Source of the DNA: an uncultured Gammaproteobacteria bacterium
GTDB lineage: Bacteria; Patescibacteriota; Microgenomatia; CAYQLK01
Direction of reading: 5' to 3'
Assembly: GCA_964404855.1 (NCBI GenBank)
Contig: CAYOLO010000001.1
Span: forward strand, 94,245 to 158,244
DNA: 64,000 bases
Position 1 is the first letter of the stretch. Every line of letters starts with the position of its first letter. The notes beneath the pieces are model-generated. The model was not told the DNA's origin. It searched no databases and worked only from the letters and a program-made list of their open reading frames with translations. Below are positions 3,871 through 63,564 of the stretch, one piece after another. The position numbers were made by a program, and so were the translations under genes.

Positions 3871-4602
3871 TTATTTTTCTACTTCCTTCGATTCTATTCT
3901 ATAAATACAGTGTTCACAGGTGGGGTCGGAGTCGGGAAGTGTGTTGGATTCGAGACAGTCACGGGCTTTGAGAAGGGCGTCTTCTACCCAACTAGCATCT
4001 CCAGTGTAAGGGAAAATCTCGACGTCAAATTCTAGTTTGCCATCGAAGGCTTTACGGTCTGTTCTTCCGTTTGCATAAACGAAATATCCAGTATTACTAA
4101 CATCGAATCCGCTGGAACGAAGAAGCCATTGATAGATTTCTATTTGTCTTTTGTAACCATCCTTATATGGACCATCCATGTCGATGCCTTTTTCCGAGGC
4201 GGTGCTTTTGTAATCAACGACATGAAGTTGATTGTCTGGTGTAACCCAGATGTCATCAATTGCTCCAGTGACGATAAAATTGCTGAGTGGATGATGGACT
4301 TGGATGCCTTGAAAGTTCTCACGCCAAATATCCATTTTGGGATGCTGGAATGGAACTGCATTTATTTTGTAATGTTCCATTAATGGATGGGCGGTGCCGT
4401 TGGCGCGGTGGACATCAAATTCTTTTTTGAATAATGTATCGACTGCGGAGTTGAGATTAAAAGAAGGCATCGAAGGTCGACCGACACCGAGACGGCGGTC
4501 GAGATAAAAACATCTTGGACATCTAGTAAAATCTTCAAGTTTGGAACGACTTAGTTTGAATGGGACTTTTGGGTCGGGGTTGAAGATGTTGCGTTGACGC
4601 AT
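3871..4602 (-). CDS. Cas4/RecB-family PD-(D/E)XK nuclease with a 4-Cys cluster
   Basis: 243 aa. N-terminal CPRCFY and C-terminal CEHCIY cysteine pairs flank a VVDYKST...EIYQW core, giving a Cas4-like architecture. No cas genes or CRISPR array nearby. Confidence 0.55.
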   Translation of the reverse strand: MRQRNIFNPDPKVPFKLSRSKLEDFTRCPRCFYLDRRLGVGRPSMPSFNLNSAVDTLFKKEFDVHRANGTAHPLMEHYKINAVPFQHPKMDIWRENFQGIQVHHPLSNFIVTGAIDDIWVTPDNQLHVVDYKSTASEKGIDMDGPYKDGYKRQIEIYQWLLRSSGFDVSNTGYFVYANGRTDRKAFDGKLEFDVEIFPYTGDASWVEDALLKARDCLESNTLPDSDPTCEHCIYRIESKEVEK

Positions 4603-4661
4603 TGGTATATTTTGAATTCGTGTATTTTAGCTTATTGAGGCAAGTAATGGGAGGATTTGTT

Positions 4662-4833
4662 AAATATTATGGATTTTATTAGTTTTTTACATTACATTCT
4701 TTTTTCAATATGTTTTCTTGGCACACCAAAAATCCCAGCGTGATTTTTGTTTTTCACTTTTTCTTCGTTCTTTTGCTTAAAGACAAAAACCATGCCCACT
4801 CAGAAAAAGAGATCCAAGAAAACATATTGAGGG
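4662..4833. repeat. Structured intergenic repeat element, copy A (5' module, hairpin module variant 1 and 3' attgagg module)
   Basis: Shares ttcttggcacaccaaaaatcccagcgtgatttttgtttttcactttttc...ccatgcccac...aaaaagagatccaagaaa...attgaggg with copies B, E and D. Contains nested inverted repeats. Confidence 0.8.
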
Positions 4834-4880
4834 AGTATGAAGTTAAGGGGCTAATAAACAGTTAGAATACGTAGATACTA

Positions 4881-5336
4881 TTAATTTTGTTGAAGTTTTT
4901 TTAATTTTTTATAATCAATTTGTTCTACCTCTCCATGTTCGTTTACAAAAAATAAATATAGATTTAATTTATCGCACACATCGTATGGAATTCGCCTGAT
5001 TGCCATTTCTTTAAAAGAAATGGGGTATCCAACCCCGTACTTGTATCCATATTTATATCCCCTTACTCCAGTTCTTTTCATTCGAGTAATTATTTGACCT
5101 AACGCAAGATTAAAATGAACCTCGCGATGAGATGATGGAAATTTTGCTCTTGTACTAGCATCACCCTTACATTCAATTAAAAAGTACCTTGAGACCTTAT
5201 TGTTTTTTACTTTTATATCAACGCCGTGCTGTTTAAGTGTTTTTGATTGAAGATTTTTGCTCCACCCTGATTTTGATAAAAATTCAATTATCTTTTCTTG
5301 AATAAAGTCCTCGGGTATTAATATTTGTTTATTCAC
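4881..5336 (-). CDS. Hypothetical protein, possible small PD-(D/E)XK-fold protein
   Basis: 151 aa. GVDIKV...YFLIECKGD resembles a D-x(n)-E-x-K nuclease core. Lies 20 nt downstream of dnaJ on the same strand. Confidence 0.4.
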   Translation of the reverse strand: MNKQILIPEDFIQEKIIEFLSKSGWSKNLQSKTLKQHGVDIKVKNNKVSRYFLIECKGDASTRAKFPSSHREVHFNLALGQIITRMKRTGVRGYKYGYKYGVGYPISFKEMAIRRIPYDVCDKLNLYLFFVNEHGEVEQIDYKKLKKLQQN

Positions 5337-5355
5337 GTTTCTATTAACTAAGCTG

Positions 5356-6225
5356 TTAAAACCAACTTTTCTTTTTGCCGGCTTCTTGGAATTGTTTGAG
5401 TAAATCTTTTTGTTTGGAGTTAAGAGTTTTGGGAACTGTGATGGTAATTATGATGTAATGATCCCCTTTGGTTTTGGTGTTAATTTTTGTCACACCTTTG
5501 CCAGCAAGTCTTATTTTGCTATCTGGTTGAGTACCAGCTGGGACTTTGACTTTTACCATTCCATCGATTGTTTCTACTTCGATGACATCACCGAGAGCGG
5601 CTTGAGTAAAATCTATTTTGGCTTCGGTATAAATATCATGACCGCGACGAGCGAATTTGCTAGAAGCAGATACCTGACAAACAATTGCAAAATCTTTAAA
5701 ACGAATCGTAGTGCCGTCGTCAACACCAGCTGGGATTTTGACTTTTTGGCGTTTGCCGTTTATCTCGAACTCTTTGGTGACACCATGAACTGCTTCGTCA
5801 AAAGAAATATGCAGACCGTATTGTGGCATGCGCTGTCTGGAACCAAATGGAGATTGACCGCCGAACATCATGTCAAAAATATCAAAAGCATCTTCAAAAC
5901 CACCAAACCCTTGATTGCCTTGTGTGCTTGACCATTGATAATTAAACCCGCCTGGGTTGCCTGCACCACCTGGTCGGCCGCCACCAAAACCTGCATTTTG
6001 GTCAAAAGCAGAGTGGCCGTACTGATCGTAAGCTGCTCTTTTGTCCTTGTCAGATAAAATTTGATAGGCTTCGTTAACTTCTTTAAAACGACTTTCGGCA
6101 CCTGCGGTTTTGTCGACGTCAGGATGAGATTTGCGGGCTTTGGCCCTGTAAGCTTTTTTTATATCATCATCTGAGGCGTTTTTTGAAACGCCTAGAGTTT
6201 CATATGGATCTTTTTTGGTACTCAT
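5356..6225 (-). CDS. dnaJ: J-domain co-chaperone, DnaJ/CbpA-like, lacking the Cys-rich zinc-finger region
   Basis: 289 aa. J domain with HPD (KSHPDVDK), a Gly/Phe-rich linker and a DnaJ C-terminal substrate-binding region. No CxxCxGxG repeats. Confidence 0.8.
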
Positions 6226-6240
6226 GGTCTTTATTTAATT

Positions 6241-6482
6241 TAATATATTATTTTTCCAATTTACTTTTCTTGCACGTTCAAAATCCCAGCGAGATTTTGC
6301 ACTTTCACTTTTTGCTCGCTCTTTTGCGAACGCAAAATCCGTGCCCGCTTGCAAAAAGAGATCAAGAAAAATAAATCGGCGGGTAGATTTGGAAAAAAAC
6401 AAAAGGCGTCCACAGTAAAATATTGGGCTAGTTAGTTTGCTTATCAGCAAACGGGAGAGATCCACTAAAGAAAATTGAGAGA
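6241..6482. repeat. Structured intergenic repeat element, copy B (variant 1 core plus a partial variant 2 fragment)
   Basis: Core caaaatcccagcgagattttgcactttcactttttgctcgctcttttgcgaacgcaaaatccgtgcccgcttgcaaaaagagatcaagaaa, then caaaaggcgtccacagtaaaatattggg and gagatccactaaagaaaattgagag. Confidence 0.8.
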
Positions 6483-6520
6483 TAGGAGATTGGAATGAGA
6501 AAAATGGGAGATGCATGGGG

Positions 6521-7129
6521 TTATTTTTTGAATTTTTGACTTACACGAGGTTGTTTGTCTTCGCGAAAGTGGCGAGGACTTCTATCAGAAGGATGTTGAT
6601 AATATTGTCCAAAGACTCCAGGAGTTTTTTCTACGATATCGATTTCGCTTGTGTCGGTGAAAAATAATTCTATTGGAAATTCTTCCGGATCTTTGCCATC
6701 AAGATCAACCTCGCCAGATAATTGTCTTGCGATAGTTCTTTTACGTTTATCACCAAAAATTTCTTCCTCAGATCTAACGGCCTCACCCTGCATTTTGGCA
6801 ATTGGCAAAGCAGGAATAGATTTGTCTGGTCTTGGCATGGTAGGTTTGGGTTCGGCGGGCCTGGGTCTTGGGCGGCGGTCGATAACTAAATCTCGAGAAG
6901 ATCCTATTTTGGGTGCTTGTTTTGACTCTTCCCAAAGTTCGATTGCTAAGAAATATGTTTCAACCAGCCAACCACGATAACGACGATTGCCTTCGTCCTT
7001 AGCTTTTTGCGCATCACGCCTTAAAGCTTCTAGTCCTCGATGTGAAGATTGATATTGCTGAGCAACAACTAGTGCGGCTTGGCGTTTGTTTTGTTCTAAT
7101 TCTGATAATTCTGGATTTTCAAGTGACAT
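6521..7129 (-). CDS. Hypothetical protein (Pro/Arg-rich central region) embedded in the heat-shock operon
   Basis: 202-aa ORF between dnaK and dnaJ on the same strand. No recognisable motif. Confidence 0.5.
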   Translation of the reverse strand: MSLENPELSELEQNKRQAALVVAQQYQSSHRGLEALRRDAQKAKDEGNRRYRGWLVETYFLAIELWEESKQAPKIGSSRDLVIDRRPRPRPAEPKPTMPRPDKSIPALPIAKMQGEAVRSEEEIFGDKRKRTIARQLSGEVDLDGKDPEEFPIELFFTDTSEIDIVEKTPGVFGQYYQHPSDRSPRHFREDKQPRVSQKFKK

Positions 7130-7157
7130 TGTTTGATTTAATTAAATATTTTATAGG

Positions 7158-7176
7158 TTTTCTCCATATGGAGAAA
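7158..7176. promoter_or_regulatory. Perfect 16-bp palindrome TTCTCCATATGGAGAA, about 30 bp upstream of the start codon of the 202-aa gene
   Basis: tttctccatatggagaaa is read directly from the sequence. The homologous position in copy F is a hairpin with a different loop (ttctctaacgagaa). Confidence 0.5.
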
Positions 7177-7181
7177 CAGAG

Positions 7182-7319
7182 TTTTTTTAATCACACTTTT
7201 CACTTCAGCTCTTTGGACTGGTGTCGTCGAGCACCTTGTTTTGCCGTCGCAAAACAAAAGGCGTTCAAAGTGTGATTGGAAGTAAAGGAAACAAAATGCG
7301 TTCATAACGAAATTGAGAG
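7182..7319. repeat. Structured intergenic repeat element, copy C (variant 2 hairpin module, no 5' module)
   Basis: A 130-nt stretch nearly identical to 16381..16480. The outer 11-bp inverted repeat is AATCACACTTT...AAAGTGTGATT. The inner hairpin is ttttgccgtcgcaaaa. Confidence 0.85.
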
Positions 7320-7367
7320 TGATGACAAAAATGTCGGAGATAGTTTTTGGAAGAATTTGGCGAGTAA

Positions 7368-7703
7368 CTATTTCCTTTCTTTTTCTTGGTCTTCTGGATG
7401 TTTGGCTCTAATTGCAGCGACGGCCTCTCGTCGCATCCTAAGAATATTGAAGTTAATTATTCGTCCACGCTCGTCTTTGAAAGGAAGATTAGAAGCAGGA
7501 AGCGGAGATTCAGGAACGTTGACACCAGAAAGAGCTTCTTTGTGGTTGAGACGAGTAAGCGCTTCGGATATTTGGCCTTGAGTATAACCATCAGCACTGC
7601 CAGCTGGACTATCATCGGCTTTGTCCCAAAGAGCTTCTAGCTCTTCACGAGTTTTGGATTCTAGCCCAGTTGGTTTGGGTTGTGCTTCTGGCGTAAATGC
7701 CAT
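7368..7703 (-). CDS. Hypothetical protein directly downstream of dnaK
   Basis: 111-aa ORF, 10 nt after the dnaK stop on the same strand. Its GC content is higher than that of its neighbours. Confidence 0.5.
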   Translation of the reverse strand: MAFTPEAQPKPTGLESKTREELEALWDKADDSPAGSADGYTQGQISEALTRLNHKEALSGVNVPESPLPASNLPFKDERGRIINFNILRMRREAVAAIRAKHPEDQEKERK

Positions 7704-7713
7704 TTTTATTTTT

Positions 7714-9621
7714 TTACTTTTTTTCTTCTACGACTTCACCTTCTTGAGTCTCGCCTTCGGCGGTAGGCTCTTCGGATGGTTTTTCTTCTGATTCAGAGGC
7801 TTGGTCATTTGAAGCTTGTGGGCCTTCGGCTTGGTCATACATTGCCTGACCTACTTTTTGAGTCGAGGTACTAAGCTCATCGGTAGCTTTTTTGATGGTA
7901 TCGATATCATCAGCCTCGAGAGCTTCTTTAGCTAGTTTGACCTTTTCTTCAACCTCGGTTTTGACCTCGGCACTAACCTTGTCGCCAGCATCTTTGAGAG
8001 CTTTTTCGCTCTGGTAGATTAAGCTTTCGGCATTGTTGCGAACCTCAATGAGCTCTTTTTTCTTGTCATCTTCGGCCTTGTGAGCTTCGGCTTCTTTCAT
8101 CTTGGTTTCGACTTCTTCTTTACTTAGTGAAGTAGAACCTGTGATGGTAATCTTCTGCTCTTTGCCTGTAGCTTTGTCTTTGGCTGAGACAGCAAGGATT
8201 CCATTAGCGTCAATGTCGAATGTAACTTCGACTTGTGGAACACCGCGAGGTGCGGTTGGAATTCCATCAAGAATAAATCTTCCTAAACTCTTGTTGTCGG
8301 TAGCCATTTCGCGCTCACCTTGTAGGACGTTAATCTCTACAGAGGTTTGGTTGTCGGCCGCAGTTGAGAAAATCTGCGACTTGGAAGTCGGGATCGTACT
8401 GTTGCGGTCGATAAGCGGAGTGCGAACACCACCTAGGGTTTCGAGACCTAGGGTAAGCGGTGTGACATCAAGGAGAAGAATGTCTTTGACGTCTCCAGAT
8501 AGAACAGCTCCTTGGATAGCCGCGCCGATGGCGACAACTTCGTCAGGATTAATACCTTTGTTAGGATCTTTGCCAAAGAATTCTTTGACCTTCTCCTGAA
8601 CTTTTGGCATTCTGGTCATTCCACCTACGAGGATAACTTCGTCGATTGCCGTTGCTTCGACACCAGCATCTTTAAGGGTGTTTTTGACTGGAGTTAGGGT
8701 TTTTTCGATTAAATCTGTAACTAGCTCTTCGAGTTTTGCCCTACTTAGTTTGGTCTGCATGTGCTTAGGTCCAGAGTTGTCGGCCGTAAGATACGGAAGA
8801 CTTATTTCGGACTCTGTTGCACTAGATAGTTCGATTTTGGCTTTTTCGGCTGCGTCGCGAATTCGCTGCATTGCTGCTTTGTCGCCTGAGATATCAACAC
8901 CTTCGGTATTTTTGTACTCAGTTACAAGATGGTCGATGATAACTTGGTCAAAGTCGTCGCCTCCGAGGTGAGTGTCACCGCCGGTTGCTTTAACTTCGAA
9001 AACTCCATCGCCTAGCTCTAGAACAGAGACGTCGAATGTTCCACCACCAAGGTCGTAGACTACGATAGTGTGAGCATTTTTCTTGTCTAGCCCGTAAGCC
9101 AGAGCGGCTGCGGTTGGCTCGTTGATAATACGTTTGACATCAAGACCTGCGATTTCGCCTGCTTGTTTGGTAGCCTGACGCTGTGCATCGTCGAAGTATG
9201 CAGGAACAGTAATAACTGCTTCTTTGACATCTTCGCCTAGATAGCTCTCGGCATCTTTTTTGAGTTTGGCTAAGATCATTGCTGAGATTTCTTGTGGGGT
9301 ATAGGTTTTGCCGTCGACTTTGACGTCAGCAGAACCGTTTTTGCCCTCGACAACTTCGTAAGGAATCCACTTGAGTAGACTCTGAACTTCTTTGTCTTTT
9401 AATTTACGCCCCATTAGACGCTTAACACTGAAAATCGTGTTTTTTGAATTGACGACGATTTGGCGTTTGGCCACATCTCCGACAATGTTTTTGGTTGGAT
9501 CAACAACTGAAGGTACAGTATTACGACCTTCGGCTGAGTGGATAACTTTTGGTTCTCCACCTTCCATTACTGAAACAACCGAGTTGGTTGTACCTAGATC
9601 AATTCCTATTATTTTTGACAT
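7714..9621 (-). CDS. dnaK: Molecular chaperone DnaK (Hsp70)
   Basis: 635 aa. N-terminal [18 protein letters not shown] and the other conserved Hsp70 signatures, plus an acidic C-terminal tail. Confidence 0.97.
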
Positions 9622-9644
9622 ATATTTTGTCTCCTTTTTTTATT

Positions 9645-10118
9645 TTACTTATTTTTTCTATTAACTGTGACTGTTGCGGGACGAATAACCTTGTTGTTAA
9701 GCGTGAAGCCGTTTTTTAGTACTTCGGCAATAGTGCCGTCGGGCTCCCCTGTTACTTCGGTAACCGCCTCGTGGAAGTGCGGATCAAACTCGGTTACACC
9801 AAGTTCGATACTTATTTCCTGCAAACCCTCGTCCTCAAAAACCTTGCGGAACTGAGCGAGCACCATATCAAGCCCTGGGTCTTTGAGATGGTTTTGGGCA
9901 GTTAGCAGGTTATCGAAAACTTCAAGAAATTTGTAGAGAATGACGGAGCCAGAAAATTCTAATATCTGCTCTTTTTCTCTTTCTACTCTTTTTTGAAGAT
10001 TCTGATAATCGGCTAAAGCACGATGATAAGATTCTTTGTAATCAAGATTGGCTTCGACCTCACTAAGGTTTTGATCTATTTCGGGGTCGATTTTGGTTTT
10101 TGGTTTTTTGGTTTTCAT
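9645..10118 (-). CDS. grpE: Nucleotide exchange factor GrpE
   Basis: 157 aa. RALADYQNLQKRVEREKE, FDPHFHEAV and VIRPATVTV are GrpE signatures. Confidence 0.9.
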   Translation of the reverse strand: MKTKKPKTKIDPEIDQNLSEVEANLDYKESYHRALADYQNLQKRVEREKEQILEFSGSVILYKFLEVFDNLLTAQNHLKDPGLDMVLAQFRKVFEDEGLQEISIELGVTEFDPHFHEAVTEVTGEPDGTIAEVLKNGFTLNNKVIRPATVTVNRKNK

Positions 10119-10165
10119 GGTTTTTGTTTGGTGTTTTGACTTAATAACTAATACTGGCTAACTAA

Positions 10166-10897
10166 TTACCAGTTGCGCGAAACCTCATTAAGAAGGGATC
10201 CGAAATAGCGCAAAGTTGGGATGACGGTTTGGTATGGCAAACGACATGGACCAACAACGCCAATATAGCCTTCGCGTCCGTTGCCTGAGGAATATTTGGT
10301 AAAAGCAAATCCACATGGGACGAACTCAGCTAGAGCTAACTCATCACCAAAAACAACATGGACAACTTCGTCGCCATAGGTTCTACCAAAGACGTCGTTT
10401 AGTAATTCGTATCTATCGATAAGTCCCAGAACTGCCTTGGTTAAATCGATGTCGTAGAACTCCGGTTTGTCTAAGATGTTGGACATACCTGCAGCGTAAA
10501 CATCACCCGTTGCACTGGTAGCTAGAGCAAGAGTGTTGGTCTGCTCAGCGAGTGCGCGGGTAGCTTGACGCATTAGTTTGTCGTACTCAAATCTTTGATC
10601 CCAAAGACTTTCTTTGATACTAACCTCGTCGCGAACGGAGAGGTTTTTTTCTTCCATTAACTGGTTAATGTACAACTTGATGGCTTGTGAGGTTGGAATA
10701 CGCCCAGCAGATGTATGAGGCTGAACGAGATAACCCACCTTGGTTAAAGTAGCCATTTCGTTTCGAATAGTTGCGGGCGAAACACCAAGCCCTGCAATTT
10801 TTTCGATTGATTCTGAACCAACTGGTTCAGCTGTATCGATGTAGCGCTCTACGATTGATCGTAGGAGTTTGCGCTGGCGGTCTGTAAGATCCGTCAT
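10166..10897 (-). CDS. hrcA: Heat-inducible transcription repressor HrcA (short form)
   Basis: 243 aa. N-terminal winged-helix region LTDRQRKLLRSIVERYIDTAEPVGSESI, typical of HrcA. It is the first gene of the hrcA-grpE-dnaK operon, with a CIRCE element upstream. Confidence 0.85.
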   Translation of the reverse strand: MTDLTDRQRKLLRSIVERYIDTAEPVGSESIEKIAGLGVSPATIRNEMATLTKVGYLVQPHTSAGRIPTSQAIKLYINQLMEEKNLSVRDEVSIKESLWDQRFEYDKLMRQATRALAEQTNTLALATSATGDVYAAGMSNILDKPEFYDIDLTKAVLGLIDRYELLNDVFGRTYGDEVVHVVFGDELALAEFVPCGFAFTKYSSGNGREGYIGVVGPCRLPYQTVIPTLRYFGSLLNEVSRNW

Positions 10898-10933
10898 AAA
10901 TTGTTAGTAACACAAGTTTCAGTCTGCGAAAAC

Positions 10934-10975
10934 TTGTATTAGCACTAATGTACTACAAGTGCTAAATTGTGTCAA
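10934..10975 (-). promoter_or_regulatory. Putative sigma-70 promoter of the hrcA operon (TTGACA-N17-TACATT) overlapping CIRCE
   Basis: The minus strand reads TTGACAcaatttagcacttgtagTACATT. CIRCE spans the spacer and the -10 element. Confidence 0.6.
10939..10965. promoter_or_regulatory. CIRCE operator (HrcA binding site) TTAGCACTA-N9-AAGTGCTAA
   Basis: ttagcactaatgtactacaagtgctaa is a 9-N9-9 inverted repeat matching the CIRCE consensus TTAGCACTC-N9-GAGTGCTAA. It lies 42 nt upstream of the hrcA start. Confidence 0.85.
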
Positions 10976-11102
10976 TACTTATGTATAAATAGGAAAAATT
11001 TAAGGTTTTTCTTCTAAAGAAACAATGGGTTAATTCTTTTATTAAAAGATAATTTTTTATATTTCCTTCTTCACTTTTTGCTGAGTGGTATAGCTAGGCT
11101 AG

Positions 11103-11265
11103 AAAATATTAATTTAATTACAATTTGCTTTTCAATTCGCTTGCTCGCACACTTGAATCCCCTGCGAGGATTCTGCATTTTCAGTTTTTGTTTACTGTTT
11201 TTACCTAATGGTAAAAAGCCATGCCAGTTAAACAAAAACAGATCTTCGCAAAGCAAATTGAGAGG
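11103..11265. repeat. Structured intergenic repeat element, copy D (diverged variant 1)
   Basis: aatttaattacaatttgcttttcaat...gaatcccctgcgaggattctgcattttcagtttttg...ctttttacctaatggtaaaaag...ccatgccagt...caaattgagagg. The hairpins are kept by compensatory substitutions relative to copies A, B and E. Confidence 0.7.
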
Positions 11266-11293
11266 ATAAGATAAAGGAAAAGATTAAGAAAAA

Positions 11294-11314
11294 GGCCCCG
11301 AGGTTAGTCGGGGC
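11294..11314 (-). terminator. Intrinsic terminator hairpin ggccccga-ggttag-tcggggc
   Basis: GC-rich stem followed by a T-tract on the minus strand (tttttcttaatct), at the 3' end of the GC-rich membrane-protein gene. Confidence 0.55.
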
Positions 11315-11582
11315 GGTCGTTGGTGAGGCTGCCACCTGTGAGAACCGTGTACGCGAAACCCAACAAGATGTGCAGAAGCGAAAAAATTAGCCACATGTAA
11401 GCAGTAGTAAACATGGATAGAATCCAGAATGTTTTCCACTGCCCATATGGTAGTTCGTCGTCGAATGTGTAGATTGCCCCTACCGTTAATCCGACAGCAA
11501 AAGTAGCTGCGGGAATAAGAATAAAGGCGAATCCGTGAAGGTATTTGCGCAGGCAAATGCCTATCAGAATCGGCGCAGACAT
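11304..11582 (-). CDS. Small multi-pass membrane protein (possibly the 3' part of a frameshifted gene)
   Basis: 92 aa with two to three hydrophobic helices in a GC-rich region. The upstream ORF 11564..11728 lies in the +1 frame and encodes another TM helix. Confidence 0.4.
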   Translation of the reverse strand: MSAPILIGICLRKYLHGFAFILIPAATFAVGLTVGAIYTFDDELPYGQWKTFWILSMFTTAYMWLIFSLLHILLGFAYTVLTGGSLTNDRPD

Positions 11583-11728
11583 GGGAGCGAGTGTCCAGAT
11601 GAGTCTGGTGTGAGGTAGTCTTGGTCTGTGTCGAAAGATTTGAGACCAAGATAGAATCCGGCTTCAGCAAAAACTGCAGCGATCAGCGTCAAATAAATGA
11701 CGAACTGGACTAGACATAATCGATTCAT
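11564..11728 (-). pseudogene. Possible 5' fragment of a frameshifted membrane-protein gene (MNRLCLVQFVIYLTLIAAVFAEAGFYLGL...)
   Basis: Overlaps the start of ORF 11304..11582 in a different frame. Joining the two would give a single 3-4 TM protein of about 146 aa. Confidence 0.3.
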
Positions 11729-11803
11729 CTCCGCCTCTTTTTTGTTTTGAAGGAACCTTAAGTGTGGAATTGTAGCTACTTGTGAGTAAATTGGCAAGAA
11801 AAT

Positions 11804-11825
11804 GCCCTCCGTTTGACGGGAGGGC
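11804..11825 (-). terminator. Hairpin gccctccg-tttg-acgggagggc downstream of gene 11859..12230
   Basis: GC stem with a one-base bulge, followed on the minus strand by attttcttgcc. Confidence 0.4.
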
Positions 11826-11858
11826 TTAATAGGATGAACTCTGGCGATGGTGCTTAGC

Positions 11859-12230
11859 TTAGTGCCAGTCAGGGACGATGATGTGGAAGAAGTACTTGCC
11901 TCTCGAGTCAGGATCGTCTACCTGCTCCTCGATTTCTTCCAGCTCCTCGTGGGTCACGAAGGCTTCGCGAGGACTGTCTTCGACCCAGACGCTGGCGGTG
12001 AAGTCGACCTTGCCTGGAACAATGACGTAGACCTTGATGTGAATCTTGTGATTGTCGAGTCCGCCGTAGTACGAGAAGTACCAGTGTGGAGAGTCGCTTG
12101 CGGGTTCGTACCGGATGAGATTGGCCTCGAAAGGCGCTCCAATCCGATGGGCGTCAGCGATCTGGGCGAGTGTCAAAGGGTTCGACACATAGTGGCCAGG
12201 CGCTAAGACGCGGGTTGCGACCGTGGACAA
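11859..12230 (-). CDS. Hypothetical protein (GC-rich island)
   Basis: 123-aa ORF at about 55-60% GC. A terminator hairpin lies downstream on the minus strand. The antisense plus-strand ORF was rejected. Confidence 0.5.
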   Translation of the reverse strand: MSTVATRVLAPGHYVSNPLTLAQIADAHRIGAPFEANLIRYEPASDSPHWYFSYYGGLDNHKIHIKVYVIVPGKVDFTASVWVEDSPREAFVTHEELEEIEEQVDDPDSRGKYFFHIIVPDWH

Positions 12231-12420
12231 GGAAACACCTTACCTTTGTAATGTTCTGACCCTGATTATATCTCTTTTGAGGCTAAATGTCAAATACTAC
12301 AGGATACTTTTGCTTGCAAAAGGATCATGCAGGACGTAGTGAGAATTTATGAAATAACGAGCTTTACCGAAGTTATGAATAAATACGAGCGAGTAACTAT
12401 AGGCACTGGAGGGCGTTGGG

Positions 12421-12576
12421 AAATATATTAATTTTAATTACAATTTTTTTTCAATCCACTTTCTTGGCACAACAAAAATTCCAGCGTGATTTTTGTTTTT
12501 CACTTTTTGCTCGCTCTTTTGTTTACACAAAAACCATGCCCACTTACAAAAAGAGATCCAAGAAAGTAAATTGAGG
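12421..12576. repeat. Structured intergenic repeat element, copy E (5' module plus variant 1), located inside the GC-rich island
   Basis: aaatatattaattttaattacaattttttttcaatccactttcttggcacaacaaaaattccagcgtgatttttgtttttcactttttgctcgctcttttgtttacacaaaaaccatgcccacttacaaaaagagatccaagaaagtaaattgagg. Confidence 0.85.
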
Positions 12577-12577
12577 A

Positions 12578-12620
12578 GATAGAAAAAAGACAAAAAAGGC
12601 CCTCCTTTTTAGGGGAGGGC
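12578..12620 (-). terminator. Intrinsic terminator gccctcc-tttttagg-ggagggc with a U-tract on the minus strand
   Basis: 7-bp GC stem. Its flank aaaaaagacaaaaaag gives a tttttt run for minus-strand transcripts ending after gene 12642..13157. Confidence 0.65.
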
Positions 12621-12641
12621 TTGGAGGGAGGAGAAATCGTT

Positions 12642-13157
12642 TCAAACGATTCTTCCATCGTGACGGTTGGCGAGCATCCTGCGGACTTTCTCATAAGTAG
12701 TAATAAGCTTGTCCTCTTCGACGCCGCCGTTGTGTCGAAGGTTTTGGCGACCAGAGCCGTAGCAGATAGGAAAAATTCCACCTGCCTTGTCGCCAAGGTA
12801 GTTGAGAACCGTGAGCAGTTCCTGGCCTGCAGCTTGGAAGCGCAGGAAGGGATCTTTCATCGCCTCGTAGTACGAGTCGAGTACTGCGACCATTGCCTGG
12901 TCTTCATCGTTTTCCGCTTCCTTCTGTTTAGCTTGCCAAGCATCGAACTCTTCGCGGACGAAGCGCTCTTTAAGTTCGCCGTGGAGCTTGTCCCACTCAG
13001 CCTTGATGGCATCGTGGCGAGGACGGAAATCGATCATGACCTGTTCGATTTTGAGGCCGTAATTCCCCCATGCTTTGACGGCGTCTTCGTAGCCATCGCG
13101 AGCCTCGAGGAATTCGACCAGGACTGAGCCTAGTCGCTCGTAAGGGTTCTGAACCAA
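12642..13157 (-). CDS. Hypothetical protein (GC-rich island)
   Basis: 171-aa ORF at about 55% GC. Supported by the downstream terminator and by co-orientation with its neighbours. Confidence 0.5.
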   Translation of the reverse strand: MVQNPYERLGSVLVEFLEARDGYEDAVKAWGNYGLKIEQVMIDFRPRHDAIKAEWDKLHGELKERFVREEFDAWQAKQKEAENDEDQAMVAVLDSYYEAMKDPFLRFQAAGQELLTVLNYLGDKAGGIFPICYGSGRQNLRHNGGVEEDKLITTYEKVRRMLANRHDGRIV

Positions 13158-13178
13158 GTTGCTGTTACTCCTTTTGAC

Positions 13179-13916
13179 TTACCACCACGTGATCCTAGCA
13201 AAGAGTGCTCTGCCAACGATTTTGCGCGGTGTTGCGGACAAGCCTCTGGTTTGCTGAGCCAGATGCCTGCGAAGGCTAATTGGCGCGTACTCGTTGACGA
13301 TCGAGTGGGTTTTGCCATCTCTTACGGCTCGGAGAAAGTCCCCGGCGGTGTGGCCGTCGAAGTACGTGACGGTTGAGCCGACATGCTCGAGGAAGTGCGC
13401 GTCTGAAGAGCCTATTTCAGGCAGATGCCAGCCTGAGCTGTTGAACTGTCTGACTAGCGGGTCACGAGCACGTCCTGCCGGTGTTGGATTACCAACTTCG
13501 ACTCCATCCAAATAGACCTGTGGATCGGGAGAGTTTTGAATTCTCCTGATTGTTTCGGAACTGAAACTGAGCGGAACTCTGGCCATTGGATGAGCCGGAA
13601 TCGCTAAGCCTCCGTGTTCGTGGATGAACTTGATTGTGTCTTCGGCCGAAGCGAGAAGTGGTGGTTGATCGGTGATGCCAAGAGCAATGAGATGTCCGTG
13701 ACGAGTAGTGATTTCTACACCACAGATGACCTCAAAGCGATAAGCACCCCGCTCTCTTAGTGAGACGGCTTGAATGCCGCCTCTGATGTCGTCGTGTTCA
13801 GTGACGGCAATCACATCCAGCTTGGTGTGCTCTTGAACGTATTCAAAAAGCTCGCCGAGGCTAAATGTTCCGTCGCTGGACTTGGTGTGAATATGCAGAT
13901 CGGCTAGACCCACCAA
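13179..13916 (-). CDS. PHP-domain metal-dependent phosphoesterase (TrpH/YciV-like)
   Basis: 245 aa. N-terminal DLHIHTKSSDG is the PHP motif-I His/Asp signature, and the conserved His residues continue (EHDD, HGH, AHP). Confidence 0.8.
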   Translation of the reverse strand: MVGLADLHIHTKSSDGTFSLGELFEYVQEHTKLDVIAVTEHDDIRGGIQAVSLRERGAYRFEVICGVEITTRHGHLIALGITDQPPLLASAEDTIKFIHEHGGLAIPAHPMARVPLSFSSETIRRIQNSPDPQVYLDGVEVGNPTPAGRARDPLVRQFNSSGWHLPEIGSSDAHFLEHVGSTVTYFDGHTAGDFLRAVRDGKTHSIVNEYAPISLRRHLAQQTRGLSATPRKIVGRALFARITWW

Positions 13917-14341
13917 TCCCCCCTTTTTAGCAGAAAGCGCTCGATTTTTTCTGAGGTGATGTCACTGTCAGAAAAGCCTAAACCTTTGACAATGAAAAGT
14001 CCCTGGGCGCTGGATAGCAGGGTGAGTTGTTGAGCTATGTCGAGTTGACATCTTTCTAGCTCAGCAAGGAATGCAGGAGTGGCGAGCTTTGCAAGCTCAA
14101 GTTCTGTCTTTGAGACGCCACAGTTGTGTCTAACACAAGTAGCGACTGCCCCAAGAATGCCAAGGTGATGTTCGGTATGAGTAAGGCCTTTCCGGCAGCG
14201 TTCCCAGTAGACAGCTTGGCCGAAAAGTGTTGCTTGTCGGTGGATGATGTTGAGGTCGACGGTCGGGGTGAGGAATGAGGGCACATTAGCCATTGCTTGT
14301 TTAGCAATTGCTTCGAACTGGGCAAGAATGTCGTCAGACAC
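13904..14341 (-). CDS. Hypothetical protein co-transcribed with the PHP phosphoesterase (13-nt overlap)
   Basis: 145-aa ORF at about 55% GC with a His-rich segment (LTHTEHHLG). Its stop overlaps the start of the PHP gene. Confidence 0.5.
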   Translation of the reverse strand: MSDDILAQFEAIAKQAMANVPSFLTPTVDLNIIHRQATLFGQAVYWERCRKGLTHTEHHLGILGAVATCVRHNCGVSKTELELAKLATPAFLAELERCQLDIAQQLTLLSSAQGLFIVKGLGFSDSDITSEKIERFLLKRGDWWV

Positions 14342-14417
14342 AAGTTCTCCTTTTAACTTAAAGTGCTAGGAGTTAACTAAGGTCAGGATTTTAGCTTATT
14401 GCAAAGCTGAAAACAAA

Positions 14418-16175
14418 TTATTTACGAAGAAGGGCGGTAAAGACTTCTTGAGAGATTTGAATATTACCGATGCTTTTGAGTCTTTTTTTACCTTTTTTCT
14501 GTTTGTCTAGAAGTTTATTTTTGCGTGTAACGTCTCCACCGTAGAGTTTGGCCGTGACGTCTTTTCTAAAAGCCGGTACTGTTTCTCTGGCGATTATTTT
14601 GCCTCCGACAATAGCCTGAATGGGTAGTGAGAACTGCTGACGCGGGAGGACTTCCTTGAGCTTGAGGGCTGTAGCACGACCGGAACTTTCGGCTCGAGAG
14701 CTGGGTACAATTTGGGCAAGAGCGTCTAGTGGGTCGTTATTTATGTAGATTTCTAGCTTGCTAACTATGACGGATTCGTAGCTAGTGACTTCAAAGTTAA
14801 GCGAGGCGTAACCTTGGGTGCGGCTTTTGAGTTCGTCATAAAAATCGGTAATTATTTCTGAAAGTGGAATTTTGTAGGTAGCTTTTATCTGATCAGCGAG
14901 GTTTTCCACAGCAAGCTGAACTCCCCTTTTGGTGTGGATAAGTTCGCCAATTGGACCAAGATACAGTGAAGGAGCAATTATTTCGACTGTGGCGATTGGC
15001 TCGAGGATTTCCATTGTGGAGGCTGGTAGTTGAGAGGTTTTGGATATTTCGGTGCCATCAAGAAGTTTGTAATTGACTGAGGGTGAGGTTGCAATAAGGT
15101 CGAGATTATATTCACGACTAAGCCTTTCGATGGTTATTTCTGAGTGAAGAAGTCCTAGAAAACCACAACGAAAGCCTTGTCCAAGCGAAGGTGAAGATTC
15201 GGCAGAGTATTCGAGTGCATAGTCATTGAGTTTGAGTTTACCCATTGCTTCTCTTAACGGTAAGAAGTCCGAAGGGTCGATTGGATAAAGTGAAAGATAG
15301 ACAACTGGAAAAGCAGGTTTGTACCCAGGAAGTGCCTCTGGAGATTGGTTTTTGTGGGTAATTGTGTCACCGACACGCGCGTTTTCGATGGTTTTGAGGG
15401 CTGTTACAAAAAAACCTACTTCACCTGAAGAGAGTGTGTCGACTTCTTTGACAAGAGGTGTGAGTTTGTAGATTGAAAGGATTTCTGTATCGGCATTGGT
15501 GGCTAGAAACTTGATTTTGTCGCCTTTTTTGAACTGACCATCGACGACTTTGACGGCTGTAACTACACCTTTGTAAAGATCGTAGAGAGAGTCGAAGACA
15601 AGTGCGCGATTAATATCGGCTTGAGTTGGGGTCGGAGGTGGAACTCTTTTGATTATTTCTTCGATAAGCTCGATGACATTTGTGCCTGTTTTTGCGGAAA
15701 CTTGCAGGATTTCTTTGTCCAAAAATCCTAAACCCTGAAGCTCTCTAATTGTTCTATCTACTTCGGCGCCTGGAGCGTCTATCTTGTTAACGACTGGAAT
15801 AATTGCGAGATTTTCGTCGAGGGCATGATTGAGGTTAGCAATGGTTTGAGCCTGAACACCTTTGGTGGCGTCGACAAGCAAGACTGCCCCTTCGCAGGCA
15901 GATAATGAACGGGAGACTTCGTAGCTAAAATCTACATGCCCTGGGGTGTCGATAAGATTAAGCAAATATTCGGTATTATTAAGCGTGTAATGAAGAGAAA
16001 TAGCTTTGAGTTTGATTGTGATTCCCCGCTCTTTTTCGAGATCCATTGAGTCGAGAAGCTGTTTGTTGTACACACTGGTATTGACCGCGTGAGTGATCTC
16101 AAGAATACGGTCGGCTAGAGTTGATTTGCCGTGGTCAATGTGGGCAATAATGGCAAAGTTGCGAATATTTAACAT
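14418..16175 (-). CDS. lepA: Elongation factor 4 (LepA)
   Basis: 585 aa. IRNFAIIAHIDHGKSTLADRIL G-domain motifs and the LepA C-terminal domain. Confidence 0.95.
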   Translation of the reverse strand: MLNIRNFAIIAHIDHGKSTLADRILEITHAVNTSVYNKQLLDSMDLEKERGITIKLKAISLHYTLNNTEYLLNLIDTPGHVDFSYEVSRSLSACEGAVLLVDATKGVQAQTIANLNHALDENLAIIPVVNKIDAPGAEVDRTIRELQGLGFLDKEILQVSAKTGTNVIELIEEIIKRVPPPTPTQADINRALVFDSLYDLYKGVVTAVKVVDGQFKKGDKIKFLATNADTEILSIYKLTPLVKEVDTLSSGEVGFFVTALKTIENARVGDTITHKNQSPEALPGYKPAFPVVYLSLYPIDPSDFLPLREAMGKLKLNDYALEYSAESSPSLGQGFRCGFLGLLHSEITIERLSREYNLDLIATSPSVNYKLLDGTEISKTSQLPASTMEILEPIATVEIIAPSLYLGPIGELIHTKRGVQLAVENLADQIKATYKIPLSEIITDFYDELKSRTQGYASLNFEVTSYESVIVSKLEIYINNDPLDALAQIVPSSRAESSGRATALKLKEVLPRQQFSLPIQAIVGGKIIARETVPAFRKDVTAKLYGGDVTRKNKLLDKQKKGKKRLKSIGNIQISQEVFTALLRK

Positions 16176-16245
16176 AAAAATTTAAGTTTAGTGGCGCTAT
16201 TCTAGCAGGAAATGAGGGTTTTGTGCGTAATTGGGAGATTTTTAT

Positions 16246-16518
16246 AAATATTTATTTTTAAATTACATTCTTTTTTCAATCTACTTTCTTGGCGCACTGT
16301 AGTTTTCTCTAACGAGAAACAAGGTTTTTAGACTTCCCTTTTGTTGAGAGATTTGGTTTTCTTCTACGAAGAAGCAAAGTTTTTTTAATCACACTTCTCA
16401 CTTCAGCTCTTTGGACTGGTGTCGTCGAGCACCTTGTTTTGCCGTCGCAAAACAAAAGGCGTTCAAAGTGTGATTAGGAATAAAGGAAAAGAAAGAGATC
16501 CACTAAAAGGTATTGAGG
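16246..16518. repeat. Structured intergenic repeat element, copy F (5' module, linker hairpins, variant 2 and a 3' gagatccactaaa..attgagg module)
   Basis: The longest copy. It combines the 5' module seen in A and E with the complete variant 2 module seen in C. Confidence 0.85.
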
Positions 16519-16611
16519 AATATGGGAAAGAAACGGTGGTTTTGATTTGGGGAAGGAGAAGGAAAAGAATCTATTACTTAGACGAAACTAAACTCGGAGG
16601 AGTACGGTACT

Positions 16612-16848
16612 GTGGCTGACAAAAACTTCATCAAATTGTTCAGCAACGGCTCGCCAGAATGCCTGGCGATCATCGAGGAGCTGACGAAACAAGGTCGAGA
16701 GTTTGTTGCCATATCGGCTGTGGCAACTGACGAATGGCCTGTGCCGAGAACGGTACTGTTGTACTTTACGTTCAACGGGTACAACAACATTCGGCGGTAT
16801 CTACTGCCTGAACTTCCACCAAGCTACGAGCTCGTAGCAGTTTCGTAA
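16612..16848 (+). CDS. Small thioredoxin-fold-like protein with an SPEC motif (GC-rich islet); GTG start
   Basis: 78 aa. SD-like GGAGG at 16596..16600, 11 nt before the GTG. An intrinsic terminator follows. IKLFSNGSPECLAIIEELTKQGREF resembles a glutaredoxin/NrdH N-terminus with Ser in place of the first Cys. Confidence 0.5.
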   Translation: MADKNFIKLFSNGSPECLAIIEELTKQGREFVAISAVATDEWPVPRTVLLYFTFNGYNNIRRYLLPELPPSYELVAVS

Positions 16849-16857
16849 TTATCCCTT

Positions 16858-16892
16858 GCGCCACCTTAAAAAGTGGCGCTTTTTCTGTTTTT
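16858..16892 (+). terminator. Intrinsic terminator gcgccac-cttaaaaa-gtggcgc followed by tttttctgttttt
   Basis: Perfect 7-bp GC stem with a U-tract, directly after the stop of 16612..16848. Confidence 0.7.
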
Positions 16893-16907
16893 ATTATTAT
16901 CTGATTC

Positions 16908-18641
16908 TCAGGAAATTTTTTGGTCGGTGGAACCTGGAGTGTCGTCGTCTATTAAGGTTGTAATTATGCCAGTTTGAGGAGTTTCTTTTCTAATGGTTGA
17001 GCGGATTTTTCTGGCAAGTGACCAGAAAAGACGAATTTCTTCGACTCTTAAAACATGCGTTAAAAATAAATAAACTGTAAAACCAGCGGCAGTAGAAATG
17101 CCTGTAAGAATAATTAGATTAACCGTTTTGGTGGTGTCAAAAATAAGTTGATCAAGAAGTTTGATGGGGATGTACAAACTAAGAGCCATAAAAAATCCTG
17201 CGGTAAATATTTTGAATGCCGGAAGAAGCAGTTCATGACGAGAGAATTTGCCAACTTTGCGGTCAAGAAAAATAATTAATAAGGTTAGATTGATAATCGC
17301 TGAAATCGAACCAGACAATCCCAATGCCCAAACGGGGAGGATTAATATTTTGACAAAAATTAGACTTAAAACAATATTTGTTCCGACGGAAATTAAGCCA
17401 ATTTTTAAGGGTGTTACTGTATCGTGAAATGCATAAAAAGCACGAACGATTAGCAATAAAACGCTTTGGGCGGCAATTCCAAACGAAAGAGTGGCAAGCG
17501 TTCTACCTGTTAGTACAGTTGCCGGCCAATCAAACTCGCTGGCACCGAAAATAAGTCTAACTAATGGGATTCTTAAAACGATTAAACAAATTGCAGCCGG
17601 CACGACCAAAAAAAGCATCTGGTGCATGGAGGTCAAAATTGTTTTTTTGAAAGCTTCGATGTTGTTTTTGGCATATTCAAGGGAAAGTGCTGGAAGTGCA
17701 GCTTGGGCAATTGTGGCACCAAAAAGTCCTATTGGAACAACATATAAGTGACTGGCAAAGTTAAATGCGACCACACTTTTGGCGGAAATAATAGAAGCTA
17801 AAGCGATATCGACTGTTTCGTTTATTTGGGAGGCAAACATTCCGACACTACGAGGAAGGCCGAGACGGAGAAGTTTGACAAGGCTTGGCTCTTTGAAATT
17901 GAGAACAAATTGATAATTAAAACCTGAAGCATAGATTGCTGGAACCTGAATCAGAAAATGCATAATTGCACCCAAAACGACACCAATGGCTGGACCATAA
18001 ATACCGAGATTGTTGGAAAGTAGTACTGCGCCTAAAATAATGCCTAAGTTGTAAAAAACCGGCGCTAGAGCGGGTATCAAAAATCTCTGACTTGACTGTA
18101 ATATTCCTGTAAAAAAACTAGAAACAGCCAAAAATATTTGGGAAATAATCATTACCCTTGTCAGATTGACCAGAGTTGCGTGTTGAGCTGGATCGGCAAC
18201 TAACCCTGGAGCGATTAAGGCAACAAGCGGCTCAACAAAGATAAAACAAATCAAAGAAATTGCAACAAAGAATAGAAAAGCGATATTAATAATGTTACTG
18301 ACCGTACTCCAGAGTTTTTTCGCTTCTTGTTTTTGGGAAAGATCGGTAAAAATTGGAATGAACGAAACAGTAATTGTTCCAAATATTAAAACCTGAAAAA
18401 TAAAGTCAGGCAGGCGGAAAGCTGCCAAGTATGCAGCTAGGTCTGGGCCTGAACCAAAATATGCGGCAAGTAATCGGTCTCTGACTAAGCCTAATATTCT
18501 GGAAGCCAGTGAAAGCCCCATAATAAGGAAGGCAGCTGAAAGAATTGTTTTCTGCTTACGAAAAAGAAACTGTTGAGCCGCGCTAAGAGCTTTGGATTGT
18601 GATTGGGCTTTTGGAATCTTGGTTTTATTGGTTTTTGGCAT
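16908..18641 (-). CDS. murJ: Lipid II flippase MurJ (MviN)
   Basis: 577 aa and 14 TM. LASRILGLVRDRLLAAYFGSGPDLAAYLAAFRLPDFIFQ is the MurJ N-terminal signature. Confidence 0.9.
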   Translation of the reverse strand: MPKTNKTKIPKAQSQSKALSAAQQFLFRKQKTILSAAFLIMGLSLASRILGLVRDRLLAAYFGSGPDLAAYLAAFRLPDFIFQVLIFGTITVSFIPIFTDLSQKQEAKKLWSTVSNIINIAFLFFVAISLICFIFVEPLVALIAPGLVADPAQHATLVNLTRVMIISQIFLAVSSFFTGILQSSQRFLIPALAPVFYNLGIILGAVLLSNNLGIYGPAIGVVLGAIMHFLIQVPAIYASGFNYQFVLNFKEPSLVKLLRLGLPRSVGMFASQINETVDIALASIISAKSVVAFNFASHLYVVPIGLFGATIAQAALPALSLEYAKNNIEAFKKTILTSMHQMLFLVVPAAICLIVLRIPLVRLIFGASEFDWPATVLTGRTLATLSFGIAAQSVLLLIVRAFYAFHDTVTPLKIGLISVGTNIVLSLIFVKILILPVWALGLSGSISAIINLTLLIIFLDRKVGKFSRHELLLPAFKIFTAGFFMALSLYIPIKLLDQLIFDTTKTVNLIILTGISTAAGFTVYLFLTHVLRVEEIRLFWSLARKIRSTIRKETPQTGIITTLIDDDTPGSTDQKIS

Positions 18642-18906
18642 TAAAAATGTTTAGGGTGTAATTGTTTAGACGGCAAGATTGTATAGAAGCACTAGAATTA
18701 AGTATATAGCTTGCGTTTTGACAGCCTCAAGTGCTAGAATTGCGCAGCTTCGGAGTTAAAGTTAAAATTCTAAAGCAGTGAGTGCCTCTTAAGAATTACT
18801 CGCTAAAAATAATTTGAAATTCTGCTTCCAGCAAATTTCACTTTAATTTTAGCTATGTCTTCTAATTGGCATTTAATTTTATTTATAAAATTATTTTAAT
18901 TGAATA

Positions 18907-24998: not shown

Positions 24999-25174
24999 GG
25001 CAAAAGCGGCTCCAGTGTGCGGATAATCTTGTCCTTCTGATCAGGACAAATCCTGTCTGGGCGCATCGGCATGGGTTTTGACGGTGAGAACGGGGTGGTT
25101 GAAGGTGAGGTTCGAGTCGGTGCGGTGGTTGGACTACTGGGCATGTCTAGATGTTCCTCCTTTGAAATATGAAT

Positions 25175-62577: not shown

Positions 62578-62583
62578 TTTTAA

Positions 62584-62877: not shown

Positions 62878-62883
62878 AGTTTT

Positions 62884-63341: not shown

Positions 63342-63399
63342 AATTTGCGTGGGGAATTATATGCCTAATGATTGAGTAAATGCAAGCGCAAAAAATACC

Positions 63400-63439: not shown

Positions 63440-63564
63440 ATGCAATATAGTCATAAGAACTTTTCGGGTCGCCAGTGACTGTTTGCCCAGTCTTACCTAA
63501 AAAAGAAAACACCTCCAAAAAAACCTAAATATTGACTTAATTCAGTCAAAAATAAACACGACCT

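Follow-up and report, generated by a model that had tools for sequence, protein, structure and literature searches.

Modular intergenic repeats with strong folds, specific to one lineage and probably mobile or exchanged by recombination, in a small Patescibacteria genome

Correia elements of Neisseria (Correia repeat enclosed elements, CREE, or Neisseria miniature insertion sequences, NEMIS) are intergenic repeats of 100-155 bp with terminal inverted repeats and long hairpins, and they fall into subtypes. They lie near genes, can supply outward promoters, and are polymorphic for presence or absence between strains. The bacterial interspersed mosaic elements (BIMEs) and repetitive extragenic palindromic (REP) sequences of enterobacteria and the BOX elements of Streptococcus pneumoniae are modular mosaics, also intergenic and often found at the 3' end of a transcription unit. 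Their secondary structures are stable, and their combinations vary by site. A preference of another kind is known from bacterial class C group II introns, which favor the site just 3' of an intrinsic terminator, in the same orientation, avoiding gene disruption. The general class of mosaic intergenic repeats has been surveyed (PMC2267715). We analyzed repeats of this sort in a 64,000-nt stretch of contig CAYOLO010000001.1 (assembly GCA_964404855.1), hereafter called the window, and we name their principal module M1.

Direct-repeat search, alignment, and pattern search located repeated intergenic sequence at six places in the window, between 4.67 and 16.53 kb, all of it on the minus strand. A sequence-only reading of the same DNA had counted six copies of one element. 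Repeats do occur at six places, but these sites are a mosaic of at least four modules (M1-M4): M1 is intact in copies A, B, D, and E, F is chimeric, and C carries M3 (Table 1). We consider it reasonably likely that the modules constitute a repeat family peculiar to this lineage, intergenic, modular, and strongly folding, that is mobile, swapped by recombination, or both, in a small Patescibacteria genome. The family is new but of a known general kind, resembling miniature inverted-repeat transposable elements (MITEs), BIMEs, and Correia elements, and its fold is unusually well supported. A literature search found no described equivalent of M1.

The M1 core (~135 nt) folds as a three-way junction closed by a 17-bp outer stem, P1. 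Read along the minus strand, a pyrimidine-rich 5' flank is followed by P1 (TCAATT...AATTGA), P2, P3, a GUGC junction, an A-run, and, 3' of the A-run, an AT-rich box (TTGTAATTAAAATTAATAT). P2 is a long stem that is interrupted by a conserved internal loop (GGGCAYGG / AAAAGAGYGA) and capped by a terminal hairpin, and P3 is a 9-bp hairpin with the loop CGCWGGG. M3 is a three-stem module of ~130 nt, distinct from M1. In copy C it spans ~7156-7291 with its own three-stem fold, a small M2 hairpin lies at 7159-7176, and the M3 sequence is 92-93% identical over 136 nt to that of copy F (16355-16489). Copy F itself combines an M1 5' flank and arm, M3, two M2 hairpins, and a degenerate 3' arm; it ends in the 3' part of a second M1, including the AT-rich box, and its outer arms have no mutual complementarity. 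M4 was found elsewhere as an insertion in L026 and also in L023 (L numbers denote related genomes and contigs). Truncated M1 5' parts are stacked upstream of the complete copy B, as in comparable stacks in relatives. These remnants (6393-6516) include a small hairpin module, GTTTGCTGATAAGCAAAC, and gave blastn matches in L027, L022, L024, and L043. A 93-amino-acid (aa) open reading frame (ORF) at 6235-6516 is probably spurious because it falls almost wholly inside copy B and its upstream remnants. The M2 hairpin near hrcA is an indel polymorphism, with 21 nt missing in L005 and present in L001, L003, L004, and L006.

The fold was examined across 26 M1 copies (24 distinct) from the window and from related metagenome-assembled genomes (MAGs) and metagenomes. 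Of the cells, 91.8% were paired, compared with 43-55% when the partners were slid, and both sides had changed at 24 of the 44 pairs; none of 500 shuffles reached the observed values. G-U pairs outnumbered A-C mismatches 43:13 on the minus (gene-sense) strand. The minus-strand fold was also more stable than the plus-strand fold in all four intact window copies, with values of -44.3 versus -28.6 kcal/mol for copy B; that of copy A reached -41.5 kcal/mol (z -4.5). The strand bias and the covariation indicate that the M1 structure matters when the gene-sense strand is single-stranded. The ends of P1 (TCAATT...AATTGA) are conserved and constitute terminal inverted repeats like those by which MITEs are defined. 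The inner part of P1 varies with compensatory changes, which is unusual for transposase-binding inverted repeats. A pseudoknot between GGCAY and GUGCC is plausible in most M1 copies and fails in the D-type and L032 copies, and we do not claim it. No Rfam 15 family reached its gathering score in the 64 kb, and none of relevance appeared at E ≤ 5 in 4000-17500; T-boxes, riboswitches, and ribozymes were rejected on these grounds, and inspection by hand showed no hammerhead-like core. M1 had no match in phage, plasmid, and viral collections, and we rejected an origin of the repeats from such elements.

Each window copy lies 3' of the preceding gene and 5' of the next gene's promoter, mostly on the terminator's strand. 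Copies D and E start directly after good intrinsic terminators, and E begins immediately past the T-run of the terminator of the 171-aa gene. The stem of that terminator (12599-12620), GCCCTCCC...GGAGGGC, is nearly the same in many others (11804-11825 in the window; L023, L016, L041, and L038), and blastn matched the segment 12589-12633 to several loci. The terminators themselves resemble a repeated module in this lineage. On the promoter side, the hrcA promoter and its controlling inverted repeat of chaperone expression (CIRCE) lie ~120 nt downstream of D, and a promoter with a 12/12 match to the sigma-70 consensus (TTGACA-17-TATAAT) lies ~125 nt downstream of E and drives the 123-aa gene. 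A promoter module of the 12265-12297 type, with a conserved spacer, adjoins repeats 5' of unrelated genes in L025, L031, L016, L038, L041, and L043. This recurrence strengthens the analogy with known repeat families that can bear promoters, and it suggests that whole terminator-to-promoter cassettes are exchanged. The CIRCE-like inverted repeat 5' of hrcA reads TTAGCACT-N11-AGTGCTAA (10929-10955), and a TTGACA-17-TACATT promoter (10947-10975, minus) overlaps it; the arrangement is perfectly conserved in six Logan contigs.

Several conventional roles did not fit these positions. In relatives, M1 and rpoD converge, as do M1 and a 395-aa gene, and M1 diverges from other genes; an element with such mixed orientation to its neighbors at different loci is not a dedicated 5' leader. 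A heat-shock RNA thermometer or 5' leader was rejected, given that M1 lies 5' of promoters and, in relatives, beside rpoD and unrelated genes. The outer stem is not a terminator because, on the gene-sense strand, an A-run comes after P1, and AGGAG... follows on the other strand. An independent small RNA gene was rejected because neither M1 strand has a conserved promoter: a TTGAAA-18-TAATAT match at the M1 3' end occurs in D and E only, and a plus-strand TACAAT box has inconsistent spacing.

Pattern scans found M1 in only a few MAGs and metagenome contigs. We recovered orthologous regions through homologues of LepA and of the PHP-domain protein encoded near it; look-ups for exact matches to these two window proteins returned none. 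LepA identity to the window was 100% in L034, 98% in L041, L042, and L043, 97% in L038, 90% in L039, 89% in L032, and 88% in L040. The PHP protein of L033 is identical to that of L032, and those of L035-L037 to that of L034. L026 and L020 matched lepA at 98% by tblastn, L026 also matched murJ, and the L009 region was recovered as well.

Copy D adjoins, and copy E lies inside, a block of GC-richer genes that the sequence-only reading had described as a foreign island of 55-60% GC. The contrast in composition was borne out for E, whose GC of 0.30 lies between genes of 0.56 and 0.53. The figure for the island was overstated, given the gene values in Table 1 and a highest 200-nt window GC of 0.58. 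Copy F had been said to flank a GC-rich gene as well, but it lies beyond lepA (GC 0.44), beside a plus-strand 78-aa ORF (GC 0.50). The 245-aa protein of the block has Pfam PHP/PHP_C domains, and the small genes carry their own consensus promoters and terminators. Eleven related loci place a core of three genes (145 aa, PHP, and 171 aa) directly downstream of lepA in every relative examined, with LepA identities from 100% to 88%. The GC of this core is 0.51-0.55 in all relatives, with flanking genes at 0.39 to 0.52. Because it has the same place and the same GC in all of them, the block is old in the clade and not a recent acquisition, and the idea of a recently arrived foreign island was not supported. 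The genes between the core and hrcA vary: the window has the 123-aa and 128-aa genes, L041 an unrelated 137-aa gene, and L033 two 122-aa genes. Another GC-richer patch, at 24603-25663, holds two small genes (131 aa, GC 0.53; 162 aa, GC 0.49) with no Pfam match; ORFs of the same size occupy the corresponding place in L041 and L042, and no repeat is nearby.

We compared the contents of each intergenic slot among these genomes. The E slot of the window contains ~330 nt made up of M1, M4, and the promoter module. L034-L037 and L033 have a compact terminator-to-promoter junction with no repeat, in which the promoter GGAGGGTTTTTTCTTGACTTTTATCAAACTATAGGGTATAAT follows directly after the terminator, and L038 and L041 carry other composites that end in the same promoter module. 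E is derived, since the compact form is common to the outgroup. Its junctions fall in short shared strings (...TATC, TATAAT), and comparison of filled and empty slots revealed no target duplication. The closest relatives of E are at other loci, namely 5' of dnaJ in L009 (90%) and copy A of the window (87%). One of the two histories offered by the sequence-only reading, insertion after the GC-rich genes had been acquired, therefore holds for copy E in its order of events: the block is in all relatives, and the slot is empty in L034-L037 and L033. That reading had reasoned that the element would be ancestral island sequence if relatives carried it at the same position in islands of matching GC; the blocks of relatives have matching GC, and L034-L037 and L033 lack E, which is the opposite outcome. 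The arrival of E after the block shows that the repeats are dynamic, and what had been called mobility may equally be exchange by recombination.

Turnover was found at the other slots as well. The D slot holds M1 in the window and L034 and a different module of ~125 nt, between the same flanks, in L038, L041, and L005. Copy D shares 90-100% identity with M1 copies found elsewhere, namely upstream of lepA (L026, L020, and L041) and downstream of rpoD (L007). The F slot has fixed flanks and six states across the window and its relatives: the chimera (window), D-type M1 (L026, L020, L041, and L042), E-type M1 (L043), a divergent M1 (L032), an M3-like module (L039), and a 39-nt residue (L038). The L032 copy is 60-70% diverged and fully compensated. 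Three M1 subfamilies with 58-77% identity occupy the A slot in the window, L009, and L008. At the B slot, L009 has an M1 of another subfamily (75% identical) and L041 an M3-type module instead; at the C slot, L009 has an M4-like module without M3 and L032 only a 33-nt spacer. Between murJ and copy F, the 78-aa ORF (16612-16848, plus strand) has its own terminator (16858-16879), and 78-aa ORFs occur at the same position in L039 and L043. L026 carries an M4 insertion of ~105 nt right after the stem of this ORF's terminator, with a partial GGCGC duplication.

M1 subfamilies do not track loci. In the identity matrix, D-type copies agree at 90-100% whether they lie at hrcA, lepA, or rpoD, and copies that sister strains have at one locus agree at 58-77%. 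Presence/absence polymorphism at orthologous sites, by which MITEs are recognized, was seen in the empty E slot and in the nearly empty F slot of L038. As judged from these comparisons, the signatures appear to be those of mobile or recombinationally exchanged repeats and not of vertically evolving regulatory sequence. The other history offered by the sequence-only reading, in which the repeats mark junctions where foreign DNA was captured, has correlative support, in that strain-variable genes abut the slots. The 151-aa gene and a type I restriction-modification (R-M) island adjoin A, and L009 has an additional gene of 206 aa at B. L041 has other small genes from the D slot to the E slot, and in L043 synteny breaks after PHP. 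No repeat lies between lepA and the GC-richer core in any genome examined.

Short-read contigs repeatedly end at or within M1-related sequence, including L001-L006 (first ~180 nt) and the ends of L034 and L037; one such contig end is at GCAAAAAGTGAAG, upstream of hrcA. Because Logan contigs end at them, the repeats evidently interrupt the assembly of this genome from short reads. The loss of synteny in L043 (from 5368) continues into SMC-like, Fpg, and FtsH genes, and L020 diverges right beyond its M1 (2023-2098). These two breaks could be real rearrangements or assembly chimeras at repeats.

The confinement of the repeats to 4.6-16.5 kb of the window, as the sequence-only reading had claimed, was upheld by the direct-repeat search, by blastn of every spacer, which found the modules in no other spacer of the window, and by a covariance model (CM) named R1. 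R1 was run with default filters and then with filters off over the whole 64 kb, where it gave four matches of 148-181 bits and a next best of 19.8 bits. Under random placement, the clustering had p = 0.002 for 6 of 62 gene junctions, 0.01 for five sites, and 0.001 by base pairs. The remaining 47 kb had been credited with many spacers of comparable size, but only four reach at least 170 nt (18642-18906, 24999-25174, 61352-61743, and 63184-63755); the spacers in the cluster are long because of the repeats they contain. We infer that the cluster mostly reflects inherited slots around lepA-hrcA-grpE-dnaK-dnaJ.

The resemblance to known families is one of kind. Compared with Correia elements, M1 is a three-way junction with conserved internal loops, and we saw no TA target duplication. 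The promoter associated with M1 is a separate neighboring module and not part of the inverted repeat. M1 also follows terminator T-runs, has no sequence similarity to Correia elements, and belongs to a Patescibacteria lineage. Relative to BIME, REP, and BOX elements, the modules are unrelated in sequence and in size, the core of M1 far exceeds a REP palindrome in length, and the window shows no transposase of the REP-associated tyrosine transposase (RAYT) type. Enterobacterial repetitive intergenic consensus (ERIC) repeats are also analogous in being structured, modular, intergenic, polymorphic, and sometimes promoter-bearing. The position after terminators recalls class C group II introns, but M1 is only ~135 nt long, has no Intron_gpII or group-II-D1D4 match in Rfam, and is associated with no reverse transcriptase in the window. 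Slot-by-slot replacement between near-identical strains is unusually dense here for an apparently small genome.

The modules fill slots that extend from a gene's terminator T-run to the promoter of the gene after it. We propose that M1 is a present or recent non-autonomous mobile element, or that, in addition or instead, recombination copies it between slots and strains through shared terminator-side and promoter-side sequences. Selection on a single-stranded minus-strand form, either read-through RNA or a single-stranded DNA (ssDNA) intermediate, would keep the structure. E is a derived addition inside an old GC-richer block.

Several observations weigh against this interpretation. No clear target-site duplication was found at E, the L026 M4 insertion, the M2 indel, or the F slot. 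Such duplications had been suggested as a mark of insertion at the element ends; E has none, and the weak candidate is a 7-nt CAAAACC direct repeat that brackets the whole F slot. The flanks of M1 copies share no k-mer. No transposase, integrase, or reverse transcriptase was identified among ~53 ORFs of the window that were compared with Pfam or NCBIfam. Clean transposition also sits poorly with copy E, which came with ~150 nt of other modules and replaced the promoter spacer; its arrival looks like recombinational replacement. The unpaired motifs of M1 are strongly conserved, and an M1 upstream of lepA persists as far as L032 (89% LepA identity); both would also fit a host function. Finally, the pair counts given above are somewhat inflated because the M1 alignment was fitted to the model.

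The last of these biological points leads to an alternative that we regard as unlikely. M1 might be primarily a host-functional structured RNA in read-through transcripts, acting as an insulator or as a processing or stability element between transcription units. The 17-bp P1 could then be, for example, an RNase III-type stem, and the variability of the slots would represent exchange of equivalent alleles. Strong covariation combined with conserved loops (GGGCAYGG, AAAAGAGYGA, CGCNGGG, and the GUGC junction) would be expected of such an RNA, as would the excess of G-U over A-C on the gene-sense strand and the location of all window copies on the strand of the flanking genes. The retention of M1 upstream of lepA across the clade, including the diverged and compensated L032 copy, points the same way. 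However, M1 lies 3' of good terminators and 5' of the next promoter and has no promoter of its own, and its outer stem, being followed by an A-run, is no terminator. Empty slots in strains with identical neighboring genes weaken the case for essentiality, orientation and neighbors are inconsistent in relatives, and truncated and chimeric copies are common. A host function of the folded RNA is possible alongside mobility, as the two are compatible and not exclusive.

More speculatively, and with little confidence, M1 may be an undescribed structured element of Patescibacteria. A new route of mobilization might depend on its conserved three-way junction, for example through an enzyme acting in trans that recognizes the fold in ssDNA or RNA and targets terminator T-runs, or M1 might serve as a "punctuation" RNA that insulates transcription units. 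Together with the portable promoter, such elements would form exchangeable cassettes for rewiring expression in a minimal genome.

It is highly improbable that M1 is an attC-like or other site-specific recombination site, with the GC-richer and strain-specific genes as cassettes moved by a dedicated recombinase. M1 does resemble attC sites and clusters of attC sites lacking integron-integrases (CALIN) in being a structured repeat whose pairing is conserved over its sequence, in its strand specificity (all window copies share one orientation), and in adjoining strain-variable genes at the slots; its outer stem is likewise conserved in structure beyond sequence. Yet the defining features of an integron attC site are absent. 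The ends of M1 read TCAAT...ATTGA and have no RYYYAAC/GTTRRRY cores, the fold is a three-way junction and not a single bulged hairpin, and no integrase or recombinase is found in the window. The copies are separated by housekeeping genes in conserved order (dnaJ, hrcA-grpE-dnaK, and lepA), and the variable genes have their own promoters and terminators where promoterless cassettes would be expected. The insertion of the 151-aa gene does not have an element on each side, and in none of the genomes examined is there an element between the GC-richer core and lepA. Chance similarity, low-complexity AT-rich intergenic sequence, or ordinary promoter and terminator signals could be suspected in an AT-rich region with promoter-like and terminator-like strings in the flanks, but are refuted by a 29-position pattern with 4 matches against 0.00 expected, by the R1 scores, by the related copies in other genomes, and by the frequent compensatory changes.

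Table 1. Positions of the repeat copies and of associated features in the window
Feature	Position	Strand	Details
Copy A, intact M1 with A-run and AT-rich box	4668-4844	minus	gap between 151-aa gene and PD-(D/E)XK gene; CM 179.5 bits
Copy B, intact M1	6223-6392	minus	ends at dnaJ start codon; CM 179.3 bits
Remnants 5' of B, truncated M1 5' parts	6393-6516	minus	arm + GGATCTC...; direct-repeat family D5
Copy C, mosaic without M1 core	7130-7367	minus	5' half of M4, M1 5'-arm remnant, M3, M2 hairpin
Small M2 hairpin, TTGTTTCTTTAGAAGAAAA	11007-11025	minus	between D and hrcA promoter; pattern search
Copy D, intact M1, subfamily 1	11098-11275	minus	3' of terminator 11295-11314; CM 148.5 bits
GC-richer block	11284-14341	minus	genes of 128 aa, 123 aa, 171 aa, 245 aa (PHP-domain), 145 aa; GC 0.49-0.56
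Sequence accompanying E	12265-12416	minus	M4-like module ~12300-12416; portable promoter module 12265-12297
Copy E, intact M1	12417-12588	minus	GC 0.30; within GC-richer gene block; CM 181.1 bits
Terminator of 171-aa gene	12599-12620	minus	GCCCTCCC...GGAGGGC + T-run; terminator scan
Copy F, chimera 5' of lepA	16240-16529	minus	sequence parse; CM only 32 bits

The genes of the 3.8-18.7 kb region are all on the minus strand. They comprise the PD-(D/E)XK nuclease gene (3871-4602), the 151-aa gene, a short dnaJ (5356-6225), 202-aa and 111-aa genes, dnaK (7714-9621), grpE, hrcA (10166-10897), the five small genes of the GC-richer block, lepA (14418-16175), and murJ. HrcA is unusually short, at 243 aa. 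The segment 105-4602 encodes a type I R-M system (hsdS and hsdM) together with NucS-like and PD-(D/E)XK nucleases, and its GC skew is opposite to that of the rest of the window. This segment is strain-specific and bounded by repeat A, as L041 has other genes after dnaJ; L009 and L008 do carry the PD-(D/E)XK gene. We rejected a replication origin near the change of GC-skew sign at ~4 kb, where there is no dnaA/dnaN context and the segment of reversed skew is the R-M island. Two long spacers near yidC and two ~98-aa genes (61352-61743, 392 nt; 63184-63755, 572 nt) contain no repeat modules and no Rfam match, and the area 61352-63755 could be the rnpA/rpmH-oriC neighborhood. A sub-threshold AsrC match in Rfam (16095-16182, plus strand; 31.9 bits against a gathering score of 111) falls in the 5' coding end of lepA and probably reflects lepA conservation.

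The host was placed by its gene content. The valyl-tRNA synthetase (ValRS; 715 aa, 51545-53692) and methionyl-tRNA synthetase (MetRS; 468 aa, 33039-34445) are truncated relative to standard bacterial models, and DnaJ appears to lack its zinc-finger domain. Truncated synthetases and a reduced DnaJ are typical of the reduced proteomes of candidate phyla radiation (CPR) bacteria. The window also encodes FemAB, LytR, DUF4012, and PMT_2 proteins, and among named organisms the closest LepA homologues (57% identity) belong to Saccharimonadales/Patescibacteria. The truncated ValRS and MetRS, the short HrcA, these further proteins, and the LepA homologues indicate a CPR bacterium.

The genomes of Patescibacteria are very small and streamlined, and the general view is that they are poor in repetitive or mobile DNA. 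In this lineage, strains with neighboring proteins that are 97-100% identical differ in what fills a handful of intergenic slots near essential genes for chaperones and translation, and one folded module and a ready-made consensus promoter recur in them. A GC-rich patch beside an AT-rich repeat need not be a recent island, and comparison with relatives reversed that reading here. If M1 is mobile, it would offer a handle on the mobilization machinery of an uncultured phylum. If it is a functional RNA, it would be a new motif with good covariation support.

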